Positions 28,109 through 63,943 of a stretch of DNA of 64,000 nt are shown one piece after another (within the stretch, counting starts at the first letter, position 1; each line of letters begins with the position of its first letter). The notes beneath the pieces were generated by a model. The model had not been told where the DNA came from and ran no database searches. It saw only the letters and a list, made by a program, of their open reading frames with translations. The DNA is from a virus. The stretch is taken from IMG/VR virus record IMGVR_UViG_3300033512_000504, one strand, 5' to 3'. The translations under genes and the position numbers were made by a program.

Positions 28109-28675
28109 ATGAGTTTTACGGCAATACCGTTAGAGAATGAAGTGGTTCTGCCAGCTATACCAGAGAAGGTTTTTAGTGCAAAGTGGTTAAGTCATATACG
28201 AATAAACAGTGATGTAGAGACAAGGAGTAAGATTGTTATACATTCTATACCGTATAATGGTTCTGAAACATTACCAGAGCCGATAGAAATAACTGTCATT
28301 GAAGATATTTTTTCTGATATGCAAGATGAGCGTCAGCCTGTTGAACTAAGACAATTAAAAGCTCAAGTTATGGAAGGAATATTTCAGTTATATAACGCAG
28401 AGACGCAATATAGAAAAGAACTTATAAGACTTGAAGCTGAAAGAATTGAGAATGAAAGATTAGCTCAAATAGAAGCTCAAAGAATAGCTGATGAATTAGA
28501 GGCTCAAAGAATAGCTGATGAAGAAGCTAGAATAGAAGCTGAAAGAATATTGGCAGCAGAACTTGCAATCATTGAAGCCCAAAGAGTTGAAATTGAAAGA
28601 ATTAGAATGGAAGAAGAAAGATTGGCTCATGAATTAGCAAATCCTGTAAACCCTGTTAATCCAATAGAAGGATAA
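28109..28675 (+). CDS. hypothetical protein with EAQRIA coiled-coil repeats
   Basis: SD AGGAG; repeated EAQRIADE. Confidence 0.65.
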
Positions 28676-28790
28676 TATGCCAATAGAATCTTTGAATTTA
28701 AAATATATATCTTGATTTTTAATATTTAACTGATATAATGATTTTGAAAATTAAAGAGGATTTAATTTAAAAATTTGGTATAATATAATT

Positions 28791-28877
28791 ATGAAAACGT
28801 ATTTAGACAACCTTAGTTCGCTATCAAGTAGCAGTTATTGCTCCTTGATCCGCAGGGGTTTGTCTTGCGATTTCTAG
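28791..28877 (+). CDS. putative attenuator leader peptide, Ser/Cys-rich (MKTYLDNLSSLSSSSYCSLIRRGLSCDF)
   Basis: 8 Ser and 2 Cys codons in 28; precedes a terminator and tRNA-Cys/Ser genes. Confidence 0.65.
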   Translation: MKTYLDNLSSLSSSSYCSLIRRGLSCDF

Positions 28878-28898
28878 ATTGAAATTGCAAATTGATTT

Positions 28899-28932
28899 AA
28901 AAACCCCGTTCGGAAACGAAACGGGGTTTTTT
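28899..28932 (+). terminator. intrinsic terminator (attenuator 1)
   Basis: AAAAACCCCGTTCG-GAAA-CGAAACGGGGTTTTTT. Confidence 0.85.
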
Positions 28933-28975
28933 GTTTTTAGGGAGAAATTGATTATCAGAGAATAAAAATTAGATA

Positions 28976-29050
28976 GCACCGATGGTTGAGTGGTTAGACG
29001 GCAGACTGCAAATCTGTCCTACGGGGGTTCAATTCCCTCTCGGTGCTCCA
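28976..29050 (+). tRNA. tRNA-Cys(GCA)
   Basis: GCACCGA/TCGGTGC acceptor, U73, CCA; anticodon arm GCAGA-CTGCAAA-TCTGT. Confidence 0.95.
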
Positions 29051-29068
29051 TATTTAAGGAGATTGATT

Positions 29069-29257
29069 ATGATAGTTTTAGAAAAAAAGATTGACAAAGT
29101 TTGGGATTATGATTACTATATCGCTCAAGCTACTAAAACCCATATCAATGTAACGGGCAAAACAAAATTGCAAGCATTAAATAATTTGAAACAAGCGATT
29201 AGAAAAAGAATAAAAAGAGGAGATATATACTCTCTTGTTGAATACTTATTGAAATAA
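29069..29257 (+). CDS. small HicB-like protein
   Basis: SD AGGAG; Y.A....TGKT..QAL.NL..AI pattern. Confidence 0.45.
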   Translation: MIVLEKKIDKVWDYDYYIAQATKTHINVTGKTKLQALNNLKQAIRKRIKRGDIYSLVEYLLK

Positions 29258-29305
29258 CAGGAGGGTGTAACGGCCCCGTAGGTTCGAATCCTACTCGCTC
29301 CGCCA
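29219..29305 (+). pseudogene. decayed tRNA-Ser(TGA)
   Basis: Intact 3' half (variable arm, GGTTCGAATCC, CTCCGCCA); mismatched acceptor and anticodon stems; overlapped by the upstream ORF. Confidence 0.55.
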
Positions 29306-29327
29306 TTTTTATTTGTATAATTATTAA

Positions 29328-30202
29328 ATGACAAATATAAACCTAAAGAGTCCATTTAGATATCCCGGCGGAAAGCTAAAATTGCGAAATCAATTGTATC
29401 TTCGATAAAAGAAGAAATTGGTTTCGATTCTATTTTTTCAAAAAGCAGCATGAATACATTTGTTGATGTTTTTGTCGGTGGCGGTTCAGTTGCGGTAGCG
29501 GTAGCCAACGAATACCCTTTAGTAAAATTTGTTTTAAATGATTTAGATGATTGGATTTTTTCTTTTTGGAACAGTATGACCGATAAACAGGAATGTAATC
29601 GACTTTTGTCATATATTGATCAGTACAAAAACCCCATAATAGACGATTTCAATGCGTTACGTAAATCTTCAGAAAGAAAAGGATTAACTTGTGGATATAA
29701 AGGATTCATAGGTTTATTTTTTAACAGGACGACATTTTCAGGTATTTTTAAATCAGGAGCGATTGGGGGAGCGGATCAATCTGGAACATATAAAATTGAT
29801 TGTCGTTATAATTCTGCAAAATTAAAGGATTATATTGTTGCAATAAATAATAATTTTTCAAATAGAACAGTAAATGTTACCAATAAAGATTTCAGAGAGA
29901 TTATAACAGCCTACAAAGATCAAGAAGACGCTTTGCTGTATCTTGATCCGCCATATATGAGACAAGGCAATACATTATACAACCAGTTTATGATTGAAAA
30001 AGATTATGACGATATGGCAAACATGTTGAAAGAGTGTAAATGTAAATGGGTATTGAGTCATGATGATTATAAACCGTTTGTTAAGTTGTTTGATGGATGG
30101 ACAAATATAAAATCAATAGAAGGTGTTGCGTATACGATTAATTCAATTGAGGGGAAGAAAAAAACCGAATTGATAGTTACGCCAATTAAGCAGATTAAAT
30201 AA
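29328..30202 (+). pseudogene. dam: Dam-family DNA adenine methyltransferase with a 1-nt frameshift after RYPGGK
   Basis: ATG 29328 gives KSPFRYPGGK, then a frame change near 29376 leads into the ORF with FVGGGSV and YLDPPY. Confidence 0.8.
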
Positions 30203-30203
30203 A

Positions 30204-30292
30204 GGAAGTGTGTCCGAGTTGGTCTATGGAACTGGTCTAGAAAACCAGCAGGTGTCACAGCCTCGTGAGTTCGAATCTCACCGCTTCCGCCA
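30204..30292 (+). tRNA. tRNA-Ser(AGA)
   Basis: GGAAGTG/CGCTTCC, G73, CCA, long variable arm; CTGGT-CT AGA AA-ACCAG. Confidence 0.85.
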
Positions 30293-30307
30293 TTTTAAAG
30301 GAGTATC

Positions 30308-30622
30308 ATGAAGAACAAAAAGGACGAAAAGGATGATTTTTATGATGATTTTGACGACGAGCCAATAAAGTATATAGATCCGATGATACAAATGGACGAA
30401 GAAATGCTACGGGAAATGACCCGAGTATTTACTAAAGAAGATTGTCCAAACATGACTCAATTGGAAATAGATGCAGTTAATGTTTTTGAAAACAGAGTAG
30501 ATATAAACAATTTTCCTAAAGATTATCAGCAAAAAATTAAAAACTTTTATCGTTTTTCCCCTATCGACATGAAAAGTTTAAGTGCAAGTGCCTCTGGAGC
30601 GAGTAGAAGTTTCTGGAAATAA
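30308..30622 (+). CDS. hypothetical protein
   Basis: SD GGAG; acidic N-terminus. Confidence 0.6.
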   Translation: MKNKKDEKDDFYDDFDDEPIKYIDPMIQMDEEMLREMTRVFTKEDCPNMTQLEIDAVNVFENRVDINNFPKDYQQKIKNFYRFSPIDMKSLSASASGASRSFWK

Positions 30623-30623
30623 T

Positions 30624-30905
30624 ATGCCGAGTATGCAAGAACATTTTGAAGATTGCTACAAAGAATTAGGCGATGGGTGGATGTGCGTTCATCATTGGTT
30701 AGATGAGTTTTCAAAGATATATTTCCCTCAAAAAATACATCGTGTTCATCGACATCATCTAGAAGGGGTGGAGGAGGTACGAAAAATGTGGGGGAATCAA
30801 GCTGCTAAGGCTGCTGAAATACATATTTTAAAAGACGAAGGTATAATTTTAAGTGAGATTCAAATTAGAAAGCGTTATGGTGTAATTGAAAAGGAAGTTT
30901 GCTAG
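30624..30905 (+). CDS. hypothetical His-rich phage protein
   Basis: VHHWLDEF, HR.HRHHLEG, AEIHI. Confidence 0.6.
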   Translation: MPSMQEHFEDCYKELGDGWMCVHHWLDEFSKIYFPQKIHRVHRHHLEGVEEVRKMWGNQAAKAAEIHILKDEGIILSEIQIRKRYGVIEKEVC

Positions 30906-30982
30906 AGCGGTAATAGGTCGGTCTCGAAAACCGTAGCCACGGCGTAAGTCGTGCGAAGGTTCAATCCCTTCAACTTCCGCCA
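30893..30982 (+). tRNA. tRNA-Ser(CGA)
   Basis: GGAAGTT/AACTTCC, G73, CCA, long variable arm, CT CGA AA loop. Confidence 0.9.
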
Positions 30983-30987
30983 AATCA

Positions 30988-31314
30988 TTATAAACTTTTT
31001 AATATGCTTTTATCTAAAACATAAATTGAATTTGGCTCGTTAATTCCTTCGTTTACCCATAGAGCTTTGAATCCATTTTCTTTTGCTTCTTGAATTCCTT
31101 CATCTAAACTTTCCTCATTGGTTGCGAGCGGAAGTATTTCTTTGGAATATATTTGTGATGAATCAACTAAAAATGGTTTTACTTCTTTTTCTAGTCCACT
31201 TTGGGTAAATTGTCTAGCCCATTCTTTATCTGTTGTATAGAACGGACTATTTTTATTATAGACGTTTTGACCTTGATATATTTGAATTGTATTGGCTATT
31301 CTATATATTCTCAT
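30988..31314 (-). CDS. small ART-fold-like protein
   Basis: IYQG, FYTTDKEWARQF, and a C-terminal IYVL strand; N-terminal MRIYRIA. Confidence 0.4.
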   Translation of the reverse strand: MRIYRIANTIQIYQGQNVYNKNSPFYTTDKEWARQFTQSGLEKEVKPFLVDSSQIYSKEILPLATNEESLDEGIQEAKENGFKALWVNEGINEPNSIYVLDKSILKSL

Positions 31315-31394
31315 TTGAATTTTCTTATAGTCATTTTTTATTGTATTATAAATCGCTTTTACTCATTGTTAATATTAAATTATTCAAGTTTATC

Positions 31395-31422
31395 TTGACA
31401 AATACCTTGTTTCTAATATACT
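31395..31422 (+). promoter_or_regulatory. sigma70-like promoter
   Basis: TTGACA-N16-TATACT upstream of 31462. Confidence 0.65.
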
Positions 31423-31461
31423 GGAATTAAATACTGAAAATATTCAATATACGGAGTTATC

Positions 31462-32483
31462 ATGAATTTGTTAAACAGAGATGATTTCCGTGAATCTGTA
31501 TTTAAAAGAGATAATTTTAAATGCGTTATTTGCGGAGAAGAAGGTAAAGACGCCCATCATATCTTGGAACGAAGATTATGGGATGACGGAGGATACTATC
31601 TATCCAACGGCGTAACTCTATGCTCCGATCATCATATATTGGCTGAAAAAACCATTTTAAGCTGCGAAGATCTAAGAATAGCATGTAAAATTGATACCCC
31701 ATGCATCCCACCATATTTTGATAAAGGTAAAAAATATGACAAATGGGGCAATGAAATCTTGACAAGCGGTTTAAGAGTCAAGGGGGAACTATTTTTCGAC
31801 GAATCTGTACAAAAAGTATTAGCAGATGTATCAGATCAATTTACAGATTACGTTAAGTTTCCTAAAATCAAGCATTTACCTTTTTCTCCCGGTATAAACA
31901 GAGATGACCGTGTTATGTCTGAAAATGATTTAAACACCTATTCCAATAATATGCAGGTTGTTATAACAGAAAAGCTAGACGGAGAGAATACGTCTACTTA
32001 CACTGACAATATTCATGCCCTCGTTCAATTGATGGCAAAAATCATTGGTCGAGGGCATGGGTCAAGAATTTACACGCAGGTATAAAATTTGATATTCCCG
32101 ATGGTTGGCGGATATGTGGCGAGAATTTATATGCCAAACATTCAATCAAATATACAAAACTGCCATCATTTTTTATTGTTTTTACGATATATAATGAAGT
32201 AAATGAGTGCTTGAGTTGGTCGGAAACAAAAGAGTATTGCAATCTGTTGGGGCTTAATTATGTTCCAGTTTTATACGAGGGGCTGTATAATAATATTGAT
32301 TGGGACAAATTGTATAGCGTATCTAGGTTCGGAGGGGAGCAAGAAGGATATGTTATGCGTTTAAGTTCAAAATTCAATTTTACGCATCATGGCAATAGTA
32401 TCGTAAAATGGGTCAGAAAAGGTCATGTAACGACAAATCATAATTGGATGTATAGTAGTTACGAAAAGAACGAGATGGAATAA
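31462..32483 (+). pseudogene. HNH domain fused to an Rnl2-like RNA ligase, frameshifted near 32020
   Basis: CVIC..HHI..LC..HH, then TEKLDGEN. The ligase continues (RSIDG, ICGENLYAKHSI, QEGYV, KWVR) in another frame after GCC-CT-CGT. Confidence 0.75.
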
Positions 32484-39743: not shown

Positions 39744-39836
39744 ATGAATACTGTTATAGATATGAGAGATATGCGCTGGGATAGGATGAGCCTTCGGGTT
39801 CCTGCCTACGATCCCGCTTTATCTGCGTATAGATAA
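39744..39836 (+). CDS. putative attenuator leader peptide, Met-rich (MNTVIDMRDMRWDRMSLRVPAYDPALSAYR)
   Basis: 3 internal ATG codons plus one ATA; precedes a terminator and two CAT tRNAs. Confidence 0.6.
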   Translation: MNTVIDMRDMRWDRMSLRVPAYDPALSAYR

Positions 39837-39859
39837 CGGATCTTAGAAAAGGATTTAGG

Positions 39860-39890
39860 AACCCAAGGCTTAACTGTCTTGGGTTTTTTT
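39860..39890 (+). terminator. intrinsic terminator (attenuator 2)
   Basis: AACCCAAGGC-TTAACT-GTCTTGGGTT followed by a T run. Confidence 0.85.
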
Positions 39891-39935
39891 GTGTCGAAAT
39901 TTGATCTTTTAAAAATGAATATAGTTTAATATGAT

Positions 39936-40012
39936 TGCGGGAGGCTAGGACGTGGTGTTCTGGCGAGCCTCATAAGCTTGCAACTTGGGTTCGAGTCCCA
40001 ATCCCGCTACCA
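39936..40012 (+). tRNA. tRNA-Met(CAT), initiator-like 1:72 mismatch
   Basis: TGCGGGA/TCCCGCT, A73, CCA; CT CAT AA loop. Confidence 0.8.
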
Positions 40013-40029
40013 ATTTTAAAAAAGTATAT

Positions 40030-40106
40030 AGCGGTGTAGCTCAGTTGGTTAGAGCAGATCCTTCATACGGATAAGGTCGGGGGTTCGAATCCCTCCGCCG
40101 CTACCA
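40030..40106 (+). tRNA. tRNA(CAT): elongator Met or Ile2
   Basis: AGCGGTG/CGCCGCT, TT CAT AC loop, CCA. Confidence 0.9.
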
Positions 40107-43917: not shown

Positions 43918-43992
43918 GTCCCTATAGTGTAATGGACAGCACAAAAGCCTTCTAAGCTTTTAGTCTAGGTTCGAATCCTAGTAGGGACGCCA
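43918..43992 (+). tRNA. tRNA-Arg(TCT)
   Basis: GTCCCTA/TAGGGAC, CT TCT AA loop, GCCA. Confidence 0.95.
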
Positions 43993-45050: not shown

Positions 45051-45125
45051 ATGTCATTTATGCAACAACAGAATAATCAAAATAACCAAAAGCCTGAGGG
45101 CTTCTTGGAACGGATTATTCTGTAA
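45051..45125 (+). CDS. putative attenuator leader peptide, Gln/Asn-rich (MSFMQQQNNQNNQKPEGFLERIIL)
   Basis: SD GGAG at an 8-nt spacing; nine consecutive Q/N codons; precedes Asn/Gln/Asn tRNAs. Confidence 0.8.
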   Translation: MSFMQQQNNQNNQKPEGFLERIIL

Positions 45126-45147
45126 AAAGCATAATCAAAGTCCACTG

Positions 45148-45179
45148 AAGACCCTCGGAAATTTCTGAGGGTCTTTTTT
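45148..45179 (+). terminator. intrinsic terminator (attenuator 3)
   Basis: AAGACCCTCGGAA-AT-TTCTGAGGGTCTT followed by a T run. Confidence 0.85.
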
Positions 45180-45204
45180 ATTGATCTTTTAACAATTTAA
45201 ATAT

Positions 45205-45280
45205 TCCGGTGTAGCTCAGTTGGTAGAGTAGGTGACTGTTAATCACCCCGTCGCTGGTTCGAGTCCAGCCACCGGAGCCA
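45205..45280 (+). tRNA. tRNA-Asn(GTT)
   Basis: TCCGGTG/CACCGGA, G73, CCA. Confidence 0.95.
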
Positions 45281-45286
45281 TTTTAT

Positions 45287-45362
45287 TGACTCGTAGTACA
45301 ATTGGCAGTACACCAGATTTTGATTCTGGGTGTTGGTGGTTCGAGTCCACCCGAGTCAACCA
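45287..45362 (+). tRNA. tRNA-Gln(TTG)
   Basis: TGACTCG/CGAGTCA, TT TTG AT loop, CCA. Confidence 0.95.
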
Positions 45363-45379
45363 TTTTAAAATTTGAATAT

Positions 45380-45455
45380 TCCTGATTAGCTCAATTGGTG
45401 GAGCAAGATGCTGTTAACATCGAGGTTCGGGGTCCGAGTCCCTGATCAGGAGCCA
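45380..45455 (+). tRNA. tRNA-Asn(GTT), second copy
   Basis: TCCTGAT/ATCAGGA, CT GTT AA loop; T-loop has TCC instead of TTC. Confidence 0.9.
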
Positions 45456-46669: not shown

Positions 46670-48178
46670 TTAAACGACCACATCAGTACCTACAATAGCT
46701 GTACCGACTTTTGCCACTGTAACACCAGAAGAACTAGAGCTTGAAGAACTATAATCCTCGGAACTACTACTGGAACTAGAGCTATATTCTTCTGAACTAG
46801 AACTAGAGCTACTTGAGTCTATTGAAGAAGAACTAGAACTACTTGAATCCACTGAAGAAGAACTACTTGAGCTTGAATCTATAGAGCTAGAACTGGAAGA
46901 GCTATAACCAAACGAAGAACTGCTACTAGAGCTTGATGATTCGTTTTCAACTTGTGTCCATCCCGTATTTTGTTCAAGTCTCCATGTTGATCCATTAGAC
47001 CGCAAATGAATATAGTCTCCGCTTACCCATATATCGCCAGTGGTAGGATTAGATGGGGTAGATTGTCCATAAAGTTTTATGTTACCTGCAAAAACATTAT
47101 CGGCATTAATATAATCTAGAGTAGTTCCGCTTTCTACTGTCGAATTCATTATTCGATTATTTGTGCCGCCATAAGCCATAGCAACGAACAATCTTAATTC
47201 AGGAGACCAGCAAACAGCAGCCCATTGATTTTCATCTACTGCAACATACGACCAATCAGTTCCGTTAATAGAAGTCATTACCTCGTCTGCTGACCCAACA
47301 GCAACGAACAATCTTAATTCAGGAGACCAGCAAACAGAATACCATGTATTTGCGGTTACTGAAACATATGACCAATCAGTTCCGTTAGGAGAAGTCATTA
47401 CTTGATTTGCACCAGAATAAGCGACAGAAACGAACAAGCTTAATTCAGGAGACCAGCAAACGGCATTCCATGGATCTGCGGTTACTGAAACATATGACCA
47501 ATCAGTTCCGTTAGGAGAAGTCATTATTCTATTTGTACCAGAATCAGCAACAGCAACAAACAATCTTAATTCAGGAGACCAGCAAATTGATCTCCATGAA
47601 TTTGCTGTTACTAAAACATACGACCAATCAGTTCCGTTAGGAGAAGTCATTACTCTATTTGTACCAGAATCAGCAACAGCAACAAACAATCTTAATTCAG
47701 GAGACCAGCAAACAGAATACCATGTATTTGCGGTTACTGAAACATATGACCAATCAATTCCGTTAGGAGAAGTCATCACTCTATTTGTCCCGCCATAAGC
47801 AACAGCAACAAACAGTTTTAATTCAGGAGACCAGCAAATTGATGTCCAATTACTTGCGGCTACTGAAACATATGACCAATCAGTTCCATTAGGAGAAGTC
47901 ATTACTTGATTTGCACCACCACGAGCGACAGCAACAAATAATCTTAATTCAGGAGACCAGCAAATTGATGTCCATGGATTTAGGTGTACTGAGACAGAAT
48001 TCCAAGTTTTTCCGCCATCCAATCGCACAGCTCCATCAGACGCTATATGAGGGAGACTTCTGCCTTTTACATCTTGAACGGTATTTGTAATTGTTCGTGA
48101 CTCTATAGACACATCTCCAGTTACGGTAAGGTCGCTATGTATTTTTCTTTCTGTCCAGTCTATTACAATAGTTGCCAT
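46670..48178 (-). CDS. virion-type beta-propeller repeat protein with poly-Ser C-terminal tract
   Basis: Seven repeats of about 42 aa (W..VCWSPELRLFVAV...VMTSPNGTDW); about 70 aa of mostly Ser at the C-terminus. Confidence 0.7.
   Translation of the reverse strand: MATIVIDWTERKIHSDLTVTGDVSIESRTITNTVQDVKGRSLPHIASDGAVRLDGGKTWNSVSVHLNPWTSICWSPELRLFVAVARGGANQVMTSPNGTDWSYVSVAASNWTSICWSPELKLFVAVAYGGTNRVMTSPNGIDWSYVSVTANTWYSVCWSPELRLFVAVADSGTNRVMTSPNGTDWSYVLVTANSWRSICWSPELRLFVAVADSGTNRIMTSPNGTDWSYVSVTADPWNAVCWSPELSLFVSVAYSGANQVMTSPNGTDWSYVSVTANTWYSVCWSPELRLFVAVGSADEVMTSINGTDWSYVAVDENQWAAVCWSPELRLFVAMAYGGTNNRIMNSTVESGTTLDYINADNVFAGNIKLYGQSTPSNPTTGDIWVSGDYIHLRSNGSTWRLEQNTGWTQVENESSSSSSSSSFGYSSSSSSSIDSSSSSSSSVDSSSSSSSSIDSSSSSSSSEEYSSSSSSSSEDYSSSSSSSSGVTVAKVGTAIVGTDVVV
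47170..47990 (-). repeat. 7 coding tandem repeats, period 126 nt (one 120 nt)
   Basis: TTAATTCAGGAGACCAGCAAA recurs near 47194, 47314, 47440, 47566, 47692, 47818 and 47944. Confidence 0.9.
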
Positions 48179-59113: not shown

Positions 59114-59632
59114 ATGCAACCATTCATAATAGATCGTAGAACTGAATTTAAGTACATAAGACTAATTGATGAGGATCAGAATTTTCATGATAAAGTGTTT
59201 GTTGGAGACGCAAGAATTAAAGCTGAAGAAAAAGGCTTAAGTCTAGTATGCTTCAATTTACCAGATAAAAATAACTTAGCCTTATGTAAAATAATCGACT
59301 ATGGTAAATGGAAATATCAGCAGGAAAAAAGTCAAAAGAAAGAACAATTAGTTCACAAAACTGTTGTTAAAGAAATGCGATTTTCACCTGTTATTGGATA
59401 TAATGACGTAGAGCATAAATTAAATCAAGTTATTGAATTCCTTAAAGATGGCGACGAAGTAGTGTTATCAATGAAATTTAAAGGGATACATAAAAGATTA
59501 ACTGCTATAGGTGGCGAACGTATGAATGAAATTGTTCAAATGTGTAAAGAACATGGAGAAGAGGTAGGTCGTAAAAGTGCTGGAAATCAAATCTTGGTTA
59601 GATTGAGACCAGTAAAAACAACAAAAAAATAA
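59114..59632 (+). CDS. infC: translation initiation factor IF-3
   Basis: IRLID, A...GL.LV, CKIIDYGKWKY, VKEMRF, FLKDGD.V. Confidence 0.9.
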   Translation: MQPFIIDRRTEFKYIRLIDEDQNFHDKVFVGDARIKAEEKGLSLVCFNLPDKNNLALCKIIDYGKWKYQQEKSQKKEQLVHKTVVKEMRFSPVIGYNDVEHKLNQVIEFLKDGDEVVLSMKFKGIHKRLTAIGGERMNEIVQMCKEHGEEVGRKSAGNQILVRLRPVKTTKK

Positions 59633-63052: not shown

Positions 63053-63136
63053 ATGAACATAAATACTATCCATATTCCAGAACATATTGAGGAACCCATT
63101 GCCCTCAGGCACGGGTATGGAATTGGTTTGTTCTAA
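63053..63136 (+). CDS. putative attenuator leader peptide, Ile/His/Pro/Glu-rich (MNINTIHIPEHIEEPIALRHGYGIGLF)
   Basis: SD AAGG; codons 6-16 are only I/H/P/E; precedes His/Ile/Pro/Glu tRNAs. Confidence 0.8.
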   Translation: MNINTIHIPEHIEEPIALRHGYGIGLF

Positions 63137-63152
63137 TTCTGTATAAGGTTTT

Positions 63153-63191
63153 AAACCCCTTGCCTGACGAAAGTTAAGCAAGGGGTTTTTT
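63153..63191 (+). terminator. intrinsic terminator (attenuator 4)
   Basis: AAACCCCTTGCCTGAC-GAAA-GTTAAGCAAGGGGTTTTTT. Confidence 0.9.
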
Positions 63192-63206
63192 ATTGCTCTT
63201 TTTAGG

Positions 63207-63235
63207 TTGACAAATAGAAAATAAAATGTTAGGAT
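63207..63235 (+). promoter_or_regulatory. sigma70-like promoter upstream of tRNA-His
   Basis: TTGACA-N17-TAGGAT. Confidence 0.5.
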
Positions 63236-63250
63236 GTTTGAAAATTTAAT

Positions 63251-63328
63251 GGCGGATGTAGCTCAATTGGTTAGAGCGTCAGATTGTGAATCTGAATGTT
63301 GCGGGTTCGAACCCCGTCATCCACCCCA
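63251..63328 (+). tRNA. tRNA-His(GTG)
   Basis: G-1/C73 pair, TT GTG AA loop, CCA. Confidence 0.9.
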
Positions 63329-63342
63329 ATTTTAGGATAAAA

Positions 63343-63522
63343 ATGAAAGAGTTATGGATGGAAGGAGTTAGAGAGATAACTGTTGATACAATGAATCTAA
63401 TTGAAAATAGATTGAAAGAATTCGGAATTGTCTTAACAGATTCAGAAGAAGATGATATACATAATAAGATATGGAATGTTTTAGAGAATAGAAGCAATGG
63501 CGAATATAAAAATCATATGTAA
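63343..63522 (+). CDS. hypothetical protein between tRNA genes
   Basis: SD AGGA; 59 aa. Confidence 0.55.
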   Translation: MKELWMEGVREITVDTMNLIENRLKEFGIVLTDSEEDDIHNKIWNVLENRSNGEYKNHM

Positions 63523-63559
63523 CAATATGGTTAGATCTTTGAAAATATAGTAATTTAAT

Positions 63560-63637
63560 AGGTGGGTAGCTCAGTTGGTTAGCAGCGTCTGTCTGATACA
63601 CAGAAGGTCGGGGGTTCGACTCCCTCTCCACCTACCA
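63560..63637 (+). tRNA. tRNA-Ile(GAT)
   Basis: AGGTGGG/TCCACCT, CT GAT AC loop, CCA. Confidence 0.95.
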
Positions 63638-63646
63638 ATTTTTAAA

Positions 63647-63745
63647 CAGCGAGTGGAAGAGTCTGGCTATCTTCGTACGGCTTGGAACCGGATATGTGTA
63701 CTAAGCGTGTATGCATCGGGGGTTCGAATCCCTCCTCGCTGACCA
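63647..63745 (+). tRNA. tRNA-Pro(TGG) with long variable arm (99 nt)
   Basis: CAGCGAG/CTCGCTG (C1-G72, A73), CT TGG AA loop, extra arm of about 24 nt, CCA. Confidence 0.75.
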
Positions 63746-63753
63746 ATTTTAAT

Positions 63754-63839
63754 GCCCCTATGGAGTAAACGGCTAACTCGTCAGACTTTCAATCTGGAGA
63801 CATCTAATGCTAGTGCGGGTTCGAATCCCGCTAGGGGTA
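63754..63839 (+). tRNA. tRNA-Glu(TTC) with extended variable region, no encoded CCA
   Basis: GCCCCTA/TAGGGGT, CT TTC AA loop, GGTTCGAATCC. Confidence 0.75.
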
Positions 63840-63943
63840 CATATTTAACTGTCTAAATAGTTTTGTGAAATTAGTTTTTAATAAAAAAAATAAAGGATTT
63901 GTATTCGATTCTCCAGAAATATCTATATAAGGAGAATTTAATA

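Follow-up and report, generated by a model that had tools for sequence, protein, structure and literature searches.

A block of phage tRNA genes in the 64,000-nt stretch of DNA analysed here (the window) is very probably controlled by a ribosome-mediated transcription attenuator, as judged from sequence comparison and modelling. Orthologous cassettes indicate that the inputs of the switch would be Ser, Leu, Tyr and Cys and that it would serve a Cys-Tyr-Leu-Ser block; in the window cassette the switch is intact, and only tRNA-Cys(GCA), tRNA-Ser(AGA) and tRNA-Ser(CGA) are retained. An earlier note on this DNA had proposed a Ser/Cys attenuator. The attenuator itself is borne out by its anatomy, its orthologues and family statistics, whereas the two-input assignment has to give way to the four amino acids seen in the orthologues. 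The features are compiled in Table 1.

Table 1. Features of the tRNA cassette and positions of the other leader-terminator-tRNA cassettes (window coordinates).
Feature	Position	Strand	Remarks
Promoter candidate P1, TTGATT-16-TATAAT with TG extension	28712-28739	+	kept in L341
Promoter candidate P2, TGn-TATAAT	28776-28784	+	ends 6 nt 5' of leader ATG
Leader ORF, 28 codons	28791-28877	+	control region, codons 4-19 (28800-28847)
Predicted anti-antiterminator, 5' segment	28803-28814	+	would pair with GGGG antiterminator strand if untranslated
1:2 hairpin (TCAAGTAGC with GCTCCTTGA)	28824-28848	+	over codons 12-20
Antiterminator strand (TCCG and GGGGTTTGTC)	28849-28864	+	pairs with 28897-28914
Inner hairpin across stop codon, closing antiterminator	28865-28890	+	arms 28865-28874/28881-28890
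Intrinsic terminator	28901-28938	+	hairpin 28904-28926, -16.9 kcal/mol with A-U extension; T run 28927-28938
tRNA-Cys(GCA)	28976-29050	+	starts 50 nt past terminator hairpin
62-aa ORF	29069-29257	+	3' end crosses junction where relative has tRNA-Tyr
tRNA-Ser 3' half, remnant	~29258-29305	+	orthologous to Ser(UGA) of L341
TATAAT, possible internal promoter	29316-29321	+	6 nt 5' of dam start codon; no -35 match
D12-class N6-adenine methyltransferase gene (dam-type)	29328-30202	+	frame broken near 29373; not in relatives' cassettes
tRNA-Ser(AGA), A34 anticodon	30204-30292	+	well formed; absent from relatives' blocks examined
104-aa ORF and DUF6915 ORF	30308-30905	+	syntenic with L341
tRNA-Ser(CGA)	30893-30982	+	last gene, then convergent ORF
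Met cassette (two CAT tRNAs)	39744-40106		leader-terminator-tRNA
Gln/Asn cassette	45051-45455		leader-terminator-tRNA
His/Ile/Pro/Glu cassette	63053-63840		leader-terminator-tRNA

The window has a GC content of 33%, dense small ORFs and scattered tRNAs, and looks like part of a large genome, presumably that of a phage. PHROG matches comprised thymidylate synthase, dUTPase, IF-3, HNH and polynucleotide kinase, and no capsid or terminase was found among the window ORFs tested. Public sequencing runs containing the stretch were microbial mat metagenomes. Each of the four tRNA clusters in the window is preceded by a terminator and by a short ORF that matches the cluster. A tRNA-Arg(TCT) at 43918-43992 lacks both a leader and a terminator of its own; several Arg codons occur in the Met leader, which lies 4 kb upstream of it. 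Further observations in the window were an IF-3 gene (59114-59632, Pfam IF3_N and IF3_C), an HNH and RNA-ligase-like gene (31462-32483) apparently interrupted near 32020 by a frame change, and approximately 25 kb of co-oriented ORFs (1-24588, - strand). Proteins with long repeated Ser runs are encoded at 46670-48178 (- strand) and in the relative L352 (79-1827), and may place a heavy demand on Ser tRNA in these genomes.

The leader ORF contains eight Ser codons, among which all six types are represented and four are AGY, as the earlier note had described; this spread is mild on its own (p ~0.04). Within codons 4-19, 14 of 16 residues are Ser, Leu, Tyr or Cys (binomial p ~3e-8 against the window amino-acid frequencies, the set of four having been picked after the relatives were seen), and no other 16-codon stretch on the + strand of the window is as rich in them. 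Such enrichment of control codons in a short ORF upstream of tRNA genes is what an attenuator calls for. The leader region had a fold z-score of -6.7. The absence of a clear Shine-Dalgarno (SD) sequence and the closeness of the ATG to a TATAAT, both pointed out before, were found again: no SD adjoins the ATG at 28791 (35 of 74 window ORFs do have one), and the TATAAT is that of P2. In L341, P2 has kept the TATAAT and its 6-nt spacing and lacks the TG. Of 72 family leaders, 12 have a TATAAT 5-8 nt 5' of the ATG, versus 3 of 81 controls (Fisher p 0.012), and a leaderless start via P2 is plausible; P1 would give a 5' UTR of ~45 nt.

The intrinsic terminator lies between the leader and the first gene, and its distance from the stop codon is 21-28 nt in the window cassette and all orthologues. 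The GGGGTTT (28855-28861) and AAACCCC (28901-28907) whose pairing had been proposed are both present, as is the second hairpin over the stop codon; the sequence of the latter is not kept in distant orthologues. Across six sequences the 1:2 hairpin was paired in 100% of cells, with seven of eight pairs invariant. Distant relatives show the classical four-segment order TCAAG/CTTGA/TCAAG/CTTGA; in the window cassette and L341, segments 3 and 4 are shortened and TCCG:CGGA is used instead. The antiterminator pairing is conserved, with 95% paired versus 26-61% for slid positions. Its covariation consists of one compensated pair among mostly invariant pairs and is not significant (201 of 500 shuffles as high). 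Sequestration of the terminator arm was also reached by 33 of 500 shuffled leaders, and the predicted antiterminator, taken alone, is not significant against shuffles.

For a modelled ribosome that masks 13 nt counted from its A site, sequestration of the terminator 5' arm (P ~1.0) lasted through codon 18, and from codon 19 onward the arm was free (≤0.1); with a footprint of 10 or 16 nt the switch point moved by one codon. Directly past the YCS codons, the modelled antiterminator probability dropped from ~1.0 to ≤0.1 in five sequences out of six; in the sixth, L349, it dropped to ~0.5. The modelled structures of these six sequences thus include an exclusive antiterminator that overlaps the 3' part of the leader and switches just past the control codons. 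At equilibrium the terminator was always the winning state, so that the switch must be kinetic and co-transcriptional. Across five orthologues of differing sequence, the 5' segment (28803-28814) and the GGGG strand are predicted to form a duplex of -10.4 to -15.2 kcal/mol (computed without a shuffle control), and such pairing would favour termination of an untranslated leader.

The following course of events is proposed. Transcription by a host-type RNA polymerase would begin upstream of 28791, at a sigma70-like promoter, and a ribosome would translate the leader, whose start is taken to be leaderless or to have a weak SD. If the ribosome lingers on any codon for Ser, Leu, Tyr or Cys within the first 18, the model predicts that 28849-28864 pairs with the terminator 5' arm before the terminator 3' arm is synthesized, and the polymerase would read into the tRNA genes. 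A ribosome that has moved past codon 19 would instead cover the antiterminator strand, and the predicted terminator would form and stop transcription near 28932. The added tRNAs would quicken decoding of the same codons and thereby close a negative feedback loop.

The closest relative, L341, was reached by way of the 104-aa ORF. A search for relatives in viral contigs through the upstream ORF or IF-3 gave none that were usable; homologues of the upstream ORF sit in other contexts from which tRNAs are absent. Matches to a leader DNA pattern in viral contigs and GTDB genomes were attributed to chance. Five orthologous cassettes were compared (L341/L475, L342/L343, L352, L354/L348 and L349). Their leaders retain an SLSSS(S)YCSL core while the flanks diverge, and the genes upstream of them are unrelated. 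tRNA-Cys is the first gene past the terminator in every orthologue that reaches that far, and at the default threshold the blocks contain Cys, Tyr, Leu and Ser tRNAs only. The L341 leader differs from that of the window in one residue and the terminator is identical, with the DNA nearby 70-89% identical. The L341 block comprises Cys, Tyr, four Leu (GAG, UAG, UAA, CAA), Ser(GCU), Ser(UGA), the two ORFs shared with the window cassette, Ser(CGA) and Ser(GGA); Ser(GGA) scores weaker, and dam is absent. The control codons match the downstream gene products in the orthologues, where 14/16 (L341), 12/15, 12/16 and 13/15 are read by the cassette's own tRNAs; the window cassette is depleted (4/16). An ORF family encoding 52-aa basic/acidic products lies inside the Cys-Tyr-Leu-Ser block of four relatives (L341, 1832-1990; L342, L352, L354) and near tRNAs in other contigs, and is absent from the window. 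TATAAT hexamers were seen 0-8 nt 5' of internal tRNAs (L341, 1992-2017; L352, 9303-9412; L354, 1692; L342, 4533), as either internal promoters or AU-rich processing spacers.

The window-L341 alignment runs to the start of tRNA-Tyr and picks up again at the 3' end of Ser(UGA). The intervening ~1 kb, with the Tyr gene, the four Leu genes, Ser(GCU) and one small ORF, is absent from the whole window, and the gap is filled by the frameshifted dam and Ser(AGA). The earlier note had counted three Ser tRNA genes. Two of these, AGA and CGA, are intact; the third is a 3' half that matches the 3' end of L341 tRNA-Ser(UGA) in 29 of 30 nt and received no call from ARAGORN or Rfam. Since half a tRNA remains and Tyr is found in all five relatives, loss from the window cassette would be a simpler reading than gain in the relatives. 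The same note had remarked that no tRNA of the window reads AGY codons, which is explained by the Ser(GCU) present in the L341, L343, L352 and L354 blocks. An assembly error behind the broken Ser tRNA was judged unlikely: a second record (L149) is identical over 28600-31100 and thus shares the tRNA remnant and the frame break in dam, and a Logan contig (X1 record 3) spans the junction with zero differences, although both may come from one sample. The frame break of dam falls at GGA AAG, and the gene would be either a pseudogene or one decoded through -1 slippage. The A34 anticodon of Ser(AGA) was considered as a marker of the system and rejected because 25 viral loci with a similar tRNA-Ser(AGA) have no matched leader.

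tRNA-Cys is almost certainly under control of the predicted attenuator; Ser(AGA) and Ser(CGA) probably are as well, less surely than tRNA-Cys. The distance of the Ser tRNAs from the leader and the intervening dam had been named as caveats. They are weakened by the L354 block, which is spread over 6 kb of protein genes, and by the lack of any predicted terminator in 28930-31500, and stand in part because the TATAAT before dam could be an internal promoter. Accordingly, one alternative is that in the window the attenuator gates tRNA-Cys and the 62-aa ORF only. An internal promoter at 29316, or at 30842 where a TATAAT lies ahead of Ser(CGA), would then drive dam and the two intact Ser tRNA genes, and the link to Ser would be purely historical. 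The absence of dam and Ser(AGA) from the relatives' cassettes fits this, as does a TTGATT-16-TATAAT immediately 5' of Ser(UGA) in L341. However, the site at 29316 has no match to a -35 element, TATAAT is common on the + strand of the window (73 hexamers), no predicted terminator separates the units, and the hexamers in L352 and L354, 0-4 nt from the tRNA, are too near for a full-tRNA start and may be AU-rich spacers. We consider such a split unlikely but worth keeping in mind, and prefer control of the whole cassette by the attenuator.

The quantity sensed would most likely be usable tRNA per isoacceptor and not amino-acid starvation as such, because the control region of the L341 leader has at least one cognate codon for each of its ten tRNAs. 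As the output is tRNA, the likeliest trigger would be a loss of usable tRNA of the kind that host tRNA-cleaving defences cause. Alternatively, the attenuator could sense starvation (charging) or a general slowdown of translation, like thr/ilv or whiB7 leaders. By established attenuation logic a stalled ribosome cannot distinguish starvation from tRNA loss; the whiB7 uORF responds to starvation as well as to tRNA or synthetase knockdown (PMC10274678), and antibiotics that target the ribosome switch on the tRNA array of Anabaena (PMC8421152). But starvation would not be cured by more tRNA, the L341 leader varies synonymous codons among its isoacceptors, and every cluster has its own matched leader, which together make starvation sensing rather doubtful.

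It is improbable that the switch is vestigial, regulating nothing useful after most of the block was lost and persisting because the loss was recent. The low codon coverage, the broken Ser(UGA) and the frameshifted dam point in that direction; against it, leader and terminator are nearly identical to those of L341 amid much more divergent DNA, tRNA-Cys is intact, and the missing tRNAs for Tyr, Leu and Ser(GCU) may be encoded beyond the 64-kb window (the contig measures 129,663 bp).

At the family level, 41 of 122 matches to the bare antiterminator-terminator pattern in viral contigs were located ≤400 nt upstream of a same-strand tRNA. Searches with terminator-tRNA patterns gave further cassettes with matched leaders, and a fixed rule yielded 72 distinct leaders. 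For the permutation set, 21 leader clusters with small arrays from viral and metagenome loci were used, which may still be related to one another. In this set 70% of control residues matched downstream tRNAs (34% when shuffled) and the leader contained 91% of the amino acids of the array (52% when shuffled); neither score was reached by any of 20,000 shuffles. All 20 amino acids occurred in 9 of 11 leaders before arrays of ≥15 amino acids (0.1 expected; some leaders are related). In an unbiased subset of the family 14 of 34 passed the antiterminator test, compared with ~6 expected. That an ordinary terminator of the upstream gene and an accidental Ser-rich frame coincide here is hardly credible: short ORFs do arise often, and the antiterminator by itself lacks significance, but the leader composition, the unrelated upstream genes of the orthologues, four matched cassettes within one window and the permutation result all speak against chance.

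The leaders with all 20 amino acids (L033, L043, L051, L054, L061, L064, L066, L080 and L106) have 34-58 codons and precede near-complete arrays that mostly start with tRNA-Gln or tRNA-Glu. A Ser/Leu-only leader in L489 (401-524) is followed by three Ser and five Leu tRNAs. In L059, L082, L096 and L065 a leader of the 20-amino-acid type and a terminator are present, and the first called tRNA is >1 kb off or absent; something other than tRNA may be gated first in these. Cultured phage records contained no leader matches, and the attenuator was absent from the stretches of LPCS28, fHe-Yen9-04, Mwe-JY26 and Mx1 inspected, two of which possibly lack the array start.

Why phages carry tRNA genes, and when these are expressed, is a long-standing question. 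It becomes testable with a codon-matched attenuator, which names the tRNAs that are limiting from the phage's point of view. What an array contains can also be predicted from its leader: the present one pointed to Leu, Tyr and Ser(GCU), which are absent here and were found in relatives. The locus adds the correction to four inputs (Ser/Leu/Tyr/Cys) and a natural variant without most of the block. We rate as an even bet the broader idea that large phages audit the tRNA pool isoacceptor by isoacceptor. The block would then be transcribed only when one isoacceptor fails, as an inducible answer to tRNA-destroying defences; the leader would carry a codon per tRNA, and all 20 amino acids if the array is complete. 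The present genome would be a natural deletion variant whose sensor has outlived most of its block. A codon-matched attenuator would carry classical attenuation over from enzymes and synthetases to tRNA genes, with feedback directly on the decoding molecule.

Multivalent leader-peptide attenuators are familiar from enterobacterial amino-acid operons (thrL, the ilvGMEDA leader and ivbL; also trpL, hisL, and pheM before pheST). Like those of the thrL/ilv type, the present cassette combines a short leader ORF containing control codons with predicted alternative pairings (1:2, 2:3 and 3:4) and an intrinsic terminator 21-28 nt past the stop codon, and several amino acids would be sensed together. 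Unlike them, it would gate tRNA genes in a phage-like genome and not biosynthetic enzymes or a synthetase, its synonymous codons are spread to match isoacceptors, and it shares no sequence homology with them. In agreement, tRNA genes and no amino-acid biosynthesis or synthetase gene follow the terminator, and none of the Rfam thr, ilv, trp and his leader families reached its gathering score (Thr_leader, 19.8 bits versus a cut-off of 55). For T-box control of tRNA genes in clostridia our literature search gave no confirmation; the T-box riboswitch model had no match here at gathering or E ≤ 5.

A search of the literature outside subscription papers found no description of leader-peptide attenuation of tRNA genes. 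In mycobacteria, stalling in the whiB7 uORF is thought to cause antitermination, with activation by tRNA or synthetase knockdown, and uORF composition determines what is sensed, as is proposed here; in contrast to our leaders, that uORF is Ala-enriched, controls a chromosomal transcription factor and shows no match between codons and co-transcribed tRNAs (PMC10274678). Polycysteine leaderless sORF attenuators, also mycobacterial, set a precedent for a leaderless short ORF as codon-specific sensor; they rely on Cys runs and regulate how translation of the following gene starts (10.1101/834739), in contrast to the present cassette with a terminator as its output and untranslated RNAs as its targets. 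The Anabaena trn operon and L-arrays are likewise tRNA arrays switched on by impaired translation; regulation is ascribed to promoter direct repeats and a hypothesised repressor, and attenuation or a leader is not mentioned (PMC8421152). Phage tRNAs counter the tRNA-cleaving defences retron-Eco7 (PMC11555353) and, reportedly, PARIS (PMC11464382). For retron-Eco7 the tRNA supply is credited to a strong promoter, with no mention of an attenuator or leader (PMC11555353). By analogy with these two defences, resupply of host-destroyed tRNAs is the likely purpose of the present switch (PMC11555353, PMC11464382). What would be new is the target, tRNA genes, and the working mode would be one shared with the thr/ilv-type attenuators and the whiB7 uORF.
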